A DNA stretch of 64,000 nt. Source: an uncultured euryarchaeote. GTDB lineage: Archaea; Thermoplasmatota; Poseidoniia; Poseidoniales; Poseidoniaceae. Positions 43,381 through 45,994 of the stretch are shown piece after piece. The stretch is taken from positions 18,933 to 82,932 of the forward strand of contig CALBRH010000060.1 of assembly GCA_937899865.1 (NCBI GenBank), written 5' to 3'. The translations under genes were made by a program, and so were the position numbers. The notes beneath the pieces were generated by a model. The model was not told the origin of the DNA. It did not search any database and saw nothing but the letters and a program-made list of their open reading frames with translations. Position 1 is the stretch's first letter, and every line of letters starts with the position of its first letter.

Positions 43381-44694
43381 TTATTCAATAATATATGATT
43401 TACCGTTCTCTGGTGAATGGGTTTTTATCCCATTTTTTCCCAATTCATCTACTAAGTGAGGCCTTGCAGTGTCGGGATCTGTGTGATAAATTACTACGTC
43501 TTCTGGATCGCATGAATAAATAAAATTTGTAATCTCTTTGTGTCCAGCGTGGGTTGAAAATGAGAAACTCTCCCAATTTAATGGAATATCTACTTGTTTA
43601 CCAAATATATCTATTTTAGATTCTGTTTGTAATTTCCTGCCACCTGTATCCTTTGCTTGATAACCGGTAAAAAATATCTCATTTTCAATATCGTGTCTAA
43701 GTCTATTTAGATACCAAATCGCTGGACCACCTTGTAACATTCCAGAAGTTGAAATAATTACATCTGCATCCAGTGCTTTCTTTCTATCTGATTTACTAGA
43801 TACTCTTCTTGACCAGTTCCATGCATCATTCAATAATTTTGGATCTCTAATAAATTGATTATTTTCAAGATATAATTTTGTTATTCTTTTACCCATACCA
43901 TCTACATGAACATCTAGTTCTGGACATTTTTGATAAAGACGTATTAACATGTCTTGGGTTCTACCGTTGGCAAAGGCTGGAATTAATACAGTACCTTGTT
44001 TATCAGTAACCCTGATTACATTTTCAATAAATCTATCTAATTCTTCTTCTTGATTAGCATGATCCTTTCCACCATAAGTTCCTTCAATAAATAATAAATC
44101 TACATCTGAAGGTTTAGCTCCATTTGTTAATGGTGAATTTCTTGTATCAAAATCTCCTGTGAATAATATATTTTTGTTATCGGTTTCCAATCTTAACATT
44201 CCAGCACCAGGTATATGGCCTGCATTATGAAGTGATAATTGCCAATTTTCTTGTTTCCATGGTTGTTCAAATTCATGAGTTATCCAAGAATCCATTGCTA
44301 AATCAATATCTCTTTTATCCCATGGTAAAGGATATTTCTCAATACTACTAATTTTGTAACAATCATTCCACATCATATGAGATATCTCTGCAGTTAATTT
44401 AGTTCCATGTAAATTAGTATTGTAATTTGCTGGAAGCCATGGTGCCATTCCTAAGTGATCAACGTGTGAATGAGTAATTATTGCATTTTTTACTGGTGGT
44501 GATTCTTTAGGATATTTTGGTGGTGATGTTGGAGCTATTCCATAATCTAAAAGTAATCTGTTAGTAGTATGATCTTCCAATATAATACCAACATTACCTA
44601 CTTCATTACCACCACCAAGGTAATGATATCGATATCCTGATTTAATTGGGTCTTGTGGATAATCGGTTGTTCGGCCTGGATTGTAAAATACCAT
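43381..44694 (-). CDS. Metallo-beta-lactamase/beta-CASP ribonuclease (aCPSF-like)
   Basis: GGGNEVG, THSHVDH, AGHIPG, FTGD, EGTYG, FANGRTQ, STSGMLQGG, FTGYQ, FSTHA. Confidence 0.92.
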   Translation of the reverse strand: MVFYNPGRTTDYPQDPIKSGYRYHYLGGGNEVGNVGIILEDHTTNRLLLDYGIAPTSPPKYPKESPPVKNAIITHSHVDHLGMAPWLPANYNTNLHGTKLTAEISHMMWNDCYKISSIEKYPLPWDKRDIDLAMDSWITHEFEQPWKQENWQLSLHNAGHIPGAGMLRLETDNKNILFTGDFDTRNSPLTNGAKPSDVDLLFIEGTYGGKDHANQEEELDRFIENVIRVTDKQGTVLIPAFANGRTQDMLIRLYQKCPELDVHVDGMGKRITKLYLENNQFIRDPKLLNDAWNWSRRVSSKSDRKKALDADVIISTSGMLQGGPAIWYLNRLRHDIENEIFFTGYQAKDTGGRKLQTESKIDIFGKQVDIPLNWESFSFSTHAGHKEITNFIYSCDPEDVVIYHTDPDTARPHLVDELGKNGIKTHSPENGKSYIIE

Positions 44695-44749
44695 TCTGAT
44701 TCATTTCTTCCAGATTGTCATCTAACATTTAGTTGATGGAAATAAAACA

Positions 44750-44776
44750 CCCCCACCCCATTATTTCCATTGGAAG
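44750..44776 (-). promoter_or_regulatory. ORB element 1 (Orc1/Cdc6 recognition box with G-string)
   Basis: Minus strand CTTCCAATGGAAATAATGGGGTGGGGG; matches TTCCAnTGGAAA-Nx-GGGG. Confidence 0.8.
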
Positions 44777-44913
44777 TAAAATTGAGTTGGAGTAAGTAAA
44801 CTTCTGGTGTAAATTTAGAATATATTATAGGCTACTTTCAAGATAAAACAAATGACGTTTTCACATTTTTTGATATAATTCATTTATTTTCACATTTAAT
44901 CAACAATAATAAA

Positions 44914-44933
44914 TTCCATAGGAAATTAGGGGG
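44914..44933 (+). promoter_or_regulatory. ORB element 2 (inverted relative to ORB1)
   Basis: TTCCATAGGAAATTAGGGGG; one mismatch in the core, G5 string. Confidence 0.72.
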
Positions 44934-44976
44934 TCTAAGGATAACATCTTCTTCATTTTAATTTAATGAGAAAATA

Positions 44977-44989
44977 ATTTCCACTGTAT
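44977..44989 (-). promoter_or_regulatory. Mini-ORB 3 (no G-string)
   Basis: Minus strand ATACAGTGGAAAT. Confidence 0.5.
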
Positions 44990-45068
44990 TTTTTCTTAAC
45001 TTATTTTTTCCAATATATTTCTTTAGGAATCACATAAACTCAAAATGTAATTGATTTTTCCCAAATAT

Positions 45069-45275
45069 ATGGCAAGAGTACCCGACCACATTTTTGTGGT
45101 CGATGAAGACAAATGTTATGGTTGCGGTGCTTGTATTGCATTATGCCCAGTCAACGTATTAGATCTAGAAAATAGAATTGCTATAGTTGATGAGAGCAAT
45201 TGTACTCATTGTGAACTTTGCATACCATCTTGTCCAGTTTTTGCCTTAGATATATTACCGGAGAATAATTTATGA
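45069..45275 (+). CDS. 2[4Fe-4S] ferredoxin
   Basis: CYGCGACIALCP and CTHCELCIPSCP; ATG 45069. Confidence 0.93.
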   Translation: MARVPDHIFVVDEDKCYGCGACIALCPVNVLDLENRIAIVDESNCTHCELCIPSCPVFALDILPENNL

Positions 45276-45994
45276 ATTCAATCGCAATTATCGGTAGTAA
45301 TTTAATCGGTTTACTTTGTGCAGACATTCTTTCTAAAGATAATACTGTAACAATAATTGAATCAGATCTTGAGTTAGGATTTCCAGCTAACTATCCAGGA
45401 ACATCAAAACAAGAAAAATTAATTTCAACAATTCTCAATAATCAAGATACAAAGAATTTATTCATATTAAATGAAAATGGTTTTACTAATTTTAGATCAG
45501 AATGGTTCATTAAATTATTAACTCACAAATTAGCAAAAAACAATGTAAAAATATTGAATCGAACAAGAGTTACAAAAATAACAGATGTAAATGGATTGTT
45601 AGAGATTTATACTAAAGGTAGTGAATTAGATTCTAATAATATAATGTGTAACAAAATTTTAGATTTTTCACACCTATCTTACAATACAATTGGCAATAAA
45701 AACCATTCACATAACTTATCATCAGATAAATTATTCAAACCAAACATTAACACAAAAACATTTTTTGTCGGTATATGTTTAATTGAAGATAGTAAAAATC
45801 TAACAACCCATGAAATATTAATTCCTAGAAATGATGGTCTTGCAGAGGTATGGTATCAAAATGATTTTCAAGAAACCCCATCACAAGGTTGGATAGAATC
45901 TAAAATAGTCAATTCATATTTTGATTCAAAGTTAATGTTTTTAGAAGAATATTATTACAAAGCCAAAGAAATAATTGAAAACATGGTGATATAA
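45272..45994 (+). CDS. Hypothetical protein with degenerate FAD-binding Rossmann N-terminus
   Basis: IAIIGSNLIGL...VTIIE..LELGFP; ATGA and TAATG overlaps with both neighbours. Confidence 0.6.
   Translation: MNSIAIIGSNLIGLLCADILSKDNTVTIIESDLELGFPANYPGTSKQEKLISTILNNQDTKNLFILNENGFTNFRSEWFIKLLTHKLAKNNVKILNRTRVTKITDVNGLLEIYTKGSELDSNNIMCNKILDFSHLSYNTIGNKNHSHNLSSDKLFKPNINTKTFFVGICLIEDSKNLTTHEILIPRNDGLAEVWYQNDFQETPSQGWIESKIVNSYFDSKLMFLEEYYYKAKEIIENMVI

Follow-up and report, generated by a model that had tools for sequence, protein, structure and literature searches.

A predicted chromosomal replication origin of Poseidoniaceae archaea, marked by a conserved pair of inverted origin recognition boxes and remote from the initiator genes

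Results

The DNA analysed here is a 64,000-nucleotide window (G000:C60:18933-82932) of a 2.01-Mb Poseidoniaceae assembly, G000, which comprises 65 contigs and is 91%-complete. Within the window, a 374-bp gap between two divergent genes (44695-45068, GC 0.26) is among the longest 2.7% of gaps by crude gene calls and had been put forward as a candidate replication origin (oriC). Its left flank is a beta-CASP nuclease gene and its right flank is a ferredoxin gene heading a ferredoxin / ~240-aa / AlaX-like operon, and both are transcribed away from the gap. These are the neighbours named in the original prediction, and the Pfam matches agree; the genes 3' of the ferredoxin gene gave matches to Pyr_redox (weak) and tRNA_SAD. 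A scan of positions 44300-45400 against Rfam found no known RNA, returning just two sub-threshold miRNA chance matches. The genes and sequence elements of the locus are as follows, where ORB denotes an origin recognition box and DUE a duplex unwinding element.

43381..44694, minus strand: beta-CASP / metallo-beta-lactamase ribonuclease, KH-less, aCPSF2-like, 437 aa (Pfam Beta-Casp, Lactamase_B, RMMBL)
44750-44776, minus strand: ORB-L (= ORB1), full ORB, CTTCCAATGGAAATAATGGGGTGGGGG, G-string toward the beta-CASP gene
44777..44913, no strand: candidate DUE, 137 bp, GC 0.22, between the inverted ORBs
about 44799-44810, minus strand: mini-ORB-like block, the degenerate counterpart of TTTCCATTG in relatives (alignment of 40 Poseidoniaceae origins)
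44858-44868, plus strand: direct repeat copy 1, TTTTCACATTT, inside the candidate DUE
44887-44897, plus strand: direct repeat copy 2, TTTTCACATTT, 29 nt after copy 1
44914-44934, plus strand: ORB-R (= ORB2), full ORB, TTCCATAGGAAATTAGGGGG followed by T to give TTCCATAGGAAATTAGGGGGT, inverted with respect to ORB-L
44977-44989, minus strand: mini-ORB3, ATACAGTGGAAAT, about 45 bp past ORB-R
45069..45275, plus strand: 2x[4Fe-4S] ferredoxin, 68 aa (Pfam Fer4 families)

The surroundings are compositionally distinct: genes between 37000 and 48000 of the window, on both sides of the gap, have a G+C of 0.28-0.36, compared to 0.40-0.45 elsewhere. They include the beta-CASP gene and the ferredoxin operon, which belong to the conserved core, as well as glycosyltransferase and methyltransferase genes.

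ORB1, ORB2 and mini-ORB3 were found at exactly the coordinates and on the strands that had been predicted, separated by spacers of the predicted 137 and 43 bp. Both full boxes contain the dyad TCCAnnGGAAA and a G-string, and both fit the pan-archaeal ORB consensus CTTCCAGTGGAAACGAAAGGGGT of Pelve et al. (as quoted in PMC4153887), to which ORB1 is very close. The sequence TTCCANNGGAAAT occurs twice in the window against an expectation of 0.15, and the pattern TCCANNGGAAA-N2-5-GGGG has no site but ORB-L and ORB-R in the whole 2.01-Mb assembly. With one mismatch allowed the assembly holds four sites and with two mismatches 26, and even at two mismatches ORB-L/ORB-R is its sole inverted pair. ORB-like motifs that were frequent genome-wide would have weakened the prediction; they proved infrequent, the pair being unique, and its two boxes the sole perfect full ORBs, both in G000 (2.01 Mb) and in a single-contig relative from another family, G039 (1.60 Mb).

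Three weaker elements had been proposed beside the two full boxes. At the position of mini-ORB3, an alignment of 40 Poseidoniaceae origins showed a column block, tTTCc..Tgga, that is kept across the family, and mini-ORB3 would probably add a third initiator site beside the flanking pair. The half-site near 44802 holds up in part, as it is degenerate in G000 itself and aligns with a TTTCCATTG-like block of many Poseidoniaceae. The half-site near 44735 is retained in the closest relative (L004) alone and overlaps the likely TATA region of the beta-CASP gene, and it was rejected as an element.

The inverted boxes lie in intergenic DNA and flank an AT-rich stretch, giving the ORB(-)/DUE/ORB(+) arrangement that constitutes the minimal origin architecture (Ori-Finder-Arch preprint). 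The GC content between the ORBs is 0.22 versus 0.40 for the genome, and in all 24 loci measured it fell 2-20 points under that of the neighbouring gene. Both spacers had been suggested as unwinding elements; the 137-bp spacer is credible in this role, and the 43-bp spacer was rejected as a DUE since nothing supported it. The 137-bp stretch also carries internal structure. In most Poseidoniaceae and some other genomes (loci L004-L018, L020 and L027), the two direct repeats keep a constant distance from ORB-L (+81 to +86) and have a period of 22-33 nt. Their sequence is lineage-specific, with the two copies co-varying: TTTTCACATTT in G000 is replaced in other lineages by TTTCACTAATTAT, GGCATACTCAC, CCTTACTTTCGTTA, TTGCTATCCTC or GTGCGGTAATT. 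This co-variation suggests that a co-evolving factor may recognise the repeats as a paired site. In addition, most Poseidoniaceae have a strongly conserved central box, TCGCGACCATA(t/a), within the supposed DUE (alignment columns about 78-110). It is preceded by TTAAGTTAAGTGCTTG in one clade and replaced by unrelated sequence in the subclade containing G000. From left to right, the 40-origin alignment thus reads ORB-L, TTTCCATTG block, TCGCGACCATA box, direct repeats, ORB-R and mini-ORB.

Conservation of the boxes in the orthologous intergenic region was assessed at 53 Poseidoniales loci anchored on beta-CASP orthologues, made up of a first set of 28 and 25 further Poseidoniaceae. The ORB(-)/AT-rich/ORB(+) module was present beside the beta-CASP gene in 49 of the 53 genomes (24/28 of the first loci and 25/25 of the further ones), which span three families, so that the predicted conservation is borne out. 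In these 49 genomes the minus-strand full ORB is located 34-92 bp upstream of the beta-CASP start and the plus-strand full ORB follows 126-147 bp beyond it; nearly all of the first 28 loci keep the order beta-CASP(-) / gap / ferredoxin(+) / ~240-aa gene(+). The 98 boxes are also constrained at positions that had not been used in the search: a pyrimidine precedes TCCA in 95/98 and follows GGAAA in 92/98, a T follows GGGG in 92/98, and the 4-nt spacer is invariant in length. The two bases at the centre of the dyad and the bases of the spacer vary freely. A fixed consensus with free non-consensus positions is the signature that selection on a putative Orc1 site would leave.

In the sister families of the same class (f4 and f5), no ORB pair was found at the beta-CASP locus in any of 16 genomes (16/16); therefore, placement beside the beta-CASP gene is a trait of the order Poseidoniales. 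One sister-family genome, G041, carries a canonical ORB(-)/74-bp AT-rich/ORB(+) module at C70:30134-30246 (L213:1408-1520), between convergent genes and neither at the beta-CASP locus nor beside orc1, and the context of the predicted origin therefore differs between the orders.

The original prediction held that no cdc6/orc1 gene is linked to the boxes. G000 encodes two Orc1/Cdc6 proteins, at C1:62121-63377 and C63:91024-92256, both on contigs other than that of the window, and a Cdc6_C search of contig C60 gave no match. The C1 protein is full-length, has Cdc6_C, Cdc6_lid and AAA domains, and matches the ORB-bound structures 2qby_A (Sulfolobus Orc1-1, E=2e-96) and 2v1u_A (Aeropyrum ORC1, E=3e-89). 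It is an Orc1-1 orthologue and the likely reader of the ORBs. The C63 paralogue is much more divergent. Both genes sit in tight gene arrays, and no ORB was found within 0.5-1.5 kb of orc1 genes in G000, in five Poseidoniales relatives or in five sister-family genomes. In relatives with longer contigs the ORB locus and the orc1 genes lie 308-468 kb apart, as follows.

G039: ORB locus at 186 kb; orc1 genes at 523 and 622 kb; distance about 336 and 435 kb
G037: ORB locus at 681 kb; orc1 genes at 373 and 273 kb; distance about 308 and 408 kb
G020: ORB locus at 7 kb; orc1 gene at 456 kb; distance about 449 kb
G009: ORB locus at 89 kb; orc1 gene at 556 kb; distance about 468 kb

The further claim that no other replication gene is nearby agreed with the genes checked, as Orc1/Cdc6, MCM, the PolD large subunit, PCNA and PolB are all encoded off C60. 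With the orc1 genes on other contigs or hundreds of kb away, the predicted origin would therefore be served in trans.

A separate element was seen in the neighbourhood of orc1-1. About 5 kb from this gene lies a palindromic mini-ORB, TTCCAnnGGAAAT, and after it TGTAAyNAAATGTAAyNAAGTAgTATAATT, an arrangement that two families have conserved (G000:C1:56205-56455, equivalent to L143:2206-2456, and G039:518,480-518,610). It lies upstream of a gene for a protein of 841-874 aa that has no Pfam match and, as judged by eye, a putative winged-helix DNA-binding motif at its N-terminus; a near-ORB is located about 500 bp inside this gene in both G000 and G039.

Strand composition and gene orientation were compared with the position of the ORB pair in G000 and three relatives; these four genomes (G000, G044, G009 and G039) share ancestry and synteny and are not independent trials. 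G039 is a single contig of 1,598,520 bp (GC 0.52) whose sole ORB pair is at 186,219-186,390. Its cumulative gene orientation is globally lowest at 185,877 and highest roughly opposite, at 941,667, with an amplitude that is marginal, being reached by 95/2000 gene-run shuffles. Forks leaving the pair would run in the direction of 57% of its called genes (61% by length). Its cumulative GC skew peaks 6 kb from the ORBs but shows three local maxima and drift, and it was not relied on as evidence for the origin. Third-position GC skew showed no difference between the leading and lagging genes of G039; for AT3 there was a slight but consistent excess of T on the leading strand (p=0.004 and 0.03). In the two relatives from the same genus, for which the first 400 kb of each contig was analysed, the agreement is close: in G009:C3 the orientation minimum (88,112) and the GC-skew maximum (88,832) lie at the ORB pair (88,472-88,653), and in the single-contig genome G044 the orientation minimum (203,746) and the cumulative GC-skew maximum (203,822) lie at the pair at 203,746-203,929. 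Thus the orientation minimum is at the pair in three relatives, and the GC-skew switch is also there in the two same-genus relatives. On contig C60 of G000, the GC-skew maximum (62,495) and the AT-skew minimum (64,265) bracket the pair (contig positions 63,688-63,865).

The third-codon-position GC skew was then compared between the left and the right of the pair with gene strand held constant, giving the following left-minus-right differences.

G000:C60: plus-strand genes +0.31 (p=0.0015); minus-strand genes -0.39 (p=3e-5)
G044: plus-strand genes +0.087 (p=4e-4); minus-strand genes -0.068 (p=0.007)
G009: plus-strand genes +0.095 (p=0.011); minus-strand genes -0.077 (p=0.005)

Since the skew differs across the pair even when gene strand is constant, the switch is not merely a matter of gene orientation; the two strands truly differ in composition, and this asymmetry changes sign at the ORB pair. 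The asymmetry is large in G000, where third-position GC skew shifts by 0.3-0.4 (window about 20000-64000).

With an origin at the pair, the leading strand would be C-rich, and in G000 also A-rich, which is the reverse of the bacterial rule. Under that rule of a G-rich leading strand, the compositional switch would instead mark a replication terminus and the ORBs would serve another purpose, and it is indeed a maximum, not a minimum, of cumulative GC skew that falls at the locus. However, genes diverge from the locus, so that most of them would be head-on to replication if it ended there, and ORB(-)/DUE/ORB(+) is the architecture of an origin. The reversed polarity also has an archaeal counterpart, as in Haloferax volcanii, whose origins are mapped, both third positions and non-coding DNA have a GC skew negatively correlated with gene-strand bias (PMC12999951). 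We regard a terminus as exceedingly unlikely.

The same data bear on the number of origins. The locus could be a real origin but one of several, the others using a different initiator or motif, for instance the second Orc1/Cdc6 paralogue. The presence of two paralogues in G000, the three local maxima of cumulative GC skew and the marginal orientation amplitude in G039 would all fit such an arrangement, and multi-origin chromosomes are common among archaea (PMC5333045). Against this, neither G000 nor G039 contains a further ORB pair, gene orientation in G039 reaches a single dominant minimum with a single maximum roughly opposite, and the second of two core orc1 copies is generally unlinked to an origin (PMC5333045). 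Additional origins are thus an unlikely reading, albeit one with some substance.

ORBs were also found outside the paired locus. A single full ORB, ACTTCCAGTAGAAACATAGGGGTGT, precedes the mcm start codon by about 70-90 bp in G000 (C15; L201:541-617), with counterparts at G039:307,124-307,200 and G044:305,884-305,955, that is, in three genomes of two families, and a mini-ORB-like element lies about 50 bp further upstream of it. This ORB may be an Orc1 operator controlling expression of the helicase. Because single ORBs occur in promoters such as that of mcm, an ORB alone does not prove an origin, and the boxes at the beta-CASP locus could likewise be mainly operators through which Orc1 or another factor regulates the divergent beta-CASP and ferredoxin promoters with no initiation. 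The position of ORB-L, whose G-string abuts the likely TATA region of the beta-CASP gene, is compatible with this. Regulation alone, however, leaves unexplained why the boxes form an inverted pair around an AT-rich spacer of 126-147 bp and why that pair is unique, and equally why the pair coincides with the orientation minimum in three genomes and with a skew flip that is independent of gene strand. An operator role in place of an origin is therefore very improbable, and the two roles are not mutually exclusive.

Discussion

Overall, these results support the prediction that the gap between the beta-CASP and ferredoxin genes is the chromosomal oriC of this Poseidoniaceae (Marine Group II) archaeon and is of the canonical Orc1/Cdc6 type, which we consider very probable. 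The reading first proposed, an origin served in trans, is supported by the conservation of the module, its uniqueness, the switch in strand composition and gene orientation, and the presence and remoteness of orc1-1. We infer that Orc1 binds, MCM is loaded and replication fires at this locus. By the scheme established for Sulfolobus oriC1, of which the Ori-Finder-Arch preprint gives a summary, Orc1-1 would be made from its distant gene and act in trans, with the inverted ORB-L and ORB-R each binding one monomer in opposite polarity. The two bound initiators would then load MCM onto the 137-bp AT-rich stretch, which would melt, and forks would depart bidirectionally. In Sulfolobus oriC1, both flanking ORBs are individually essential (PMC12141716).

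Some archaea carry a dispensable oriC. The Poseidoniales locus could be conserved but dormant or dispensable, with recombination-dependent initiation as the normal mode, much as Haloferax volcanii is viable after origin deletion (PMC4010727). Yet the compositional and orientation asymmetries centred on the pair imply long-term use, and throughout the order purifying selection on the consensus bases is strict. A dormant origin is therefore most unlikely, and an active oriC remains the reading that we favour.

Beyond this core, a second layer of recognition can be proposed tentatively, as a possibility to which we would give less than an even chance: the DUE repeats would bind a fast-evolving second factor, and at the conserved ORB of the mcm promoter Orc1-1 would double as a transcription factor, linking the supply of helicase to the licensing of the origin. 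The repeat-binding factor, which would co-evolve with its site, could be Orc1-2 or else a functional analogue of the UBP protein of Sulfolobus.

Poseidoniales (Marine Group II), which have never been grown in culture, rank among the most abundant archaea of the plankton. The original prediction knew of no mapped origin in this lineage, and our search of the literature on Marine Group II, Poseidoniales and Thalassoarchaea likewise found no paper that places one, although it may be covered by a bulk annotation, dated 2026, of 16,409 archaeal assemblies. A conserved, precisely placed single oriC would provide a reference point for estimating in-situ growth from metagenomic peak-to-trough ratios, and its position would help to orient and close Poseidoniales MAGs. 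With hundreds of kb between it and the initiator gene, the locus would escape origin finders that search beside orc1/cdc6. The C-rich leading strand, the co-varying DUE repeats and the ORB in the mcm promoter offer further leads for archaeal replication biology.

In the textbook arrangement, an archaeal origin adjoins its initiator gene (PMC4010727). An origin unlinked to its initiator is not new, since neither cdc6 gene adjoins an origin in Aeropyrum pernix (PMC5333045) and the oriC of Hyperthermus butylicus has no adjacent initiator gene (Ori-Finder-Arch preprint); the Poseidoniales locus would add a Thermoplasmata-related lineage to this short list of archaea with separated origin and initiator. 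Like the A. pernix oriC1 and the H. butylicus oriC, both from Desulfurococcales, it is of the ORB type with no adjacent cdc6/orc1. Those two organisms belong to a different phylum, Thermoproteota, and the A. pernix origin has four ORBs and is backed by biochemical and 2D-gel evidence, whereas the Poseidoniales origin is a prediction.

In its layout, the locus resembles the ORB3-DUE-ORB2 core of Sulfolobus/Saccharolobus oriC1, with which it shares two inverted full ORBs, a DUE of about 130 bp and an initiator of the Orc1-1 type, together with extra mini-ORBs outside the core (PMC12141716, PMC4010727). It differs in that Sulfolobus orc1-1 immediately adjoins oriC1. The two DUEs also differ in content: that of Sulfolobus contains the essential ucm motif, the binding site of UBP, which is reported to occur in Sulfolobales and Desulfurococcales alone (PMC12141716), whereas that of Poseidoniales contains lineage-specific repeats and, in most Poseidoniaceae but not in G000, the TCGCGACCATA box.

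In sequence, the boxes are close to those of the origins predicted for Methanomassiliicoccales, which belong to the Thermoplasmata-related branch as well, with inverted ORB pairs and a nearly identical ORB consensus, GTTCCAGTGGAAATGG-AGGGGT, in which some boxes have a second G-run like that of ORB1 (PMC4153887). Unlike the Poseidoniales pair, the Methanomassiliicoccales pairs flank orc1/cdc6.1 (PMC4153887). Within this branch, the separation of origin and initiator gene is a feature of the Poseidoniales lineage.
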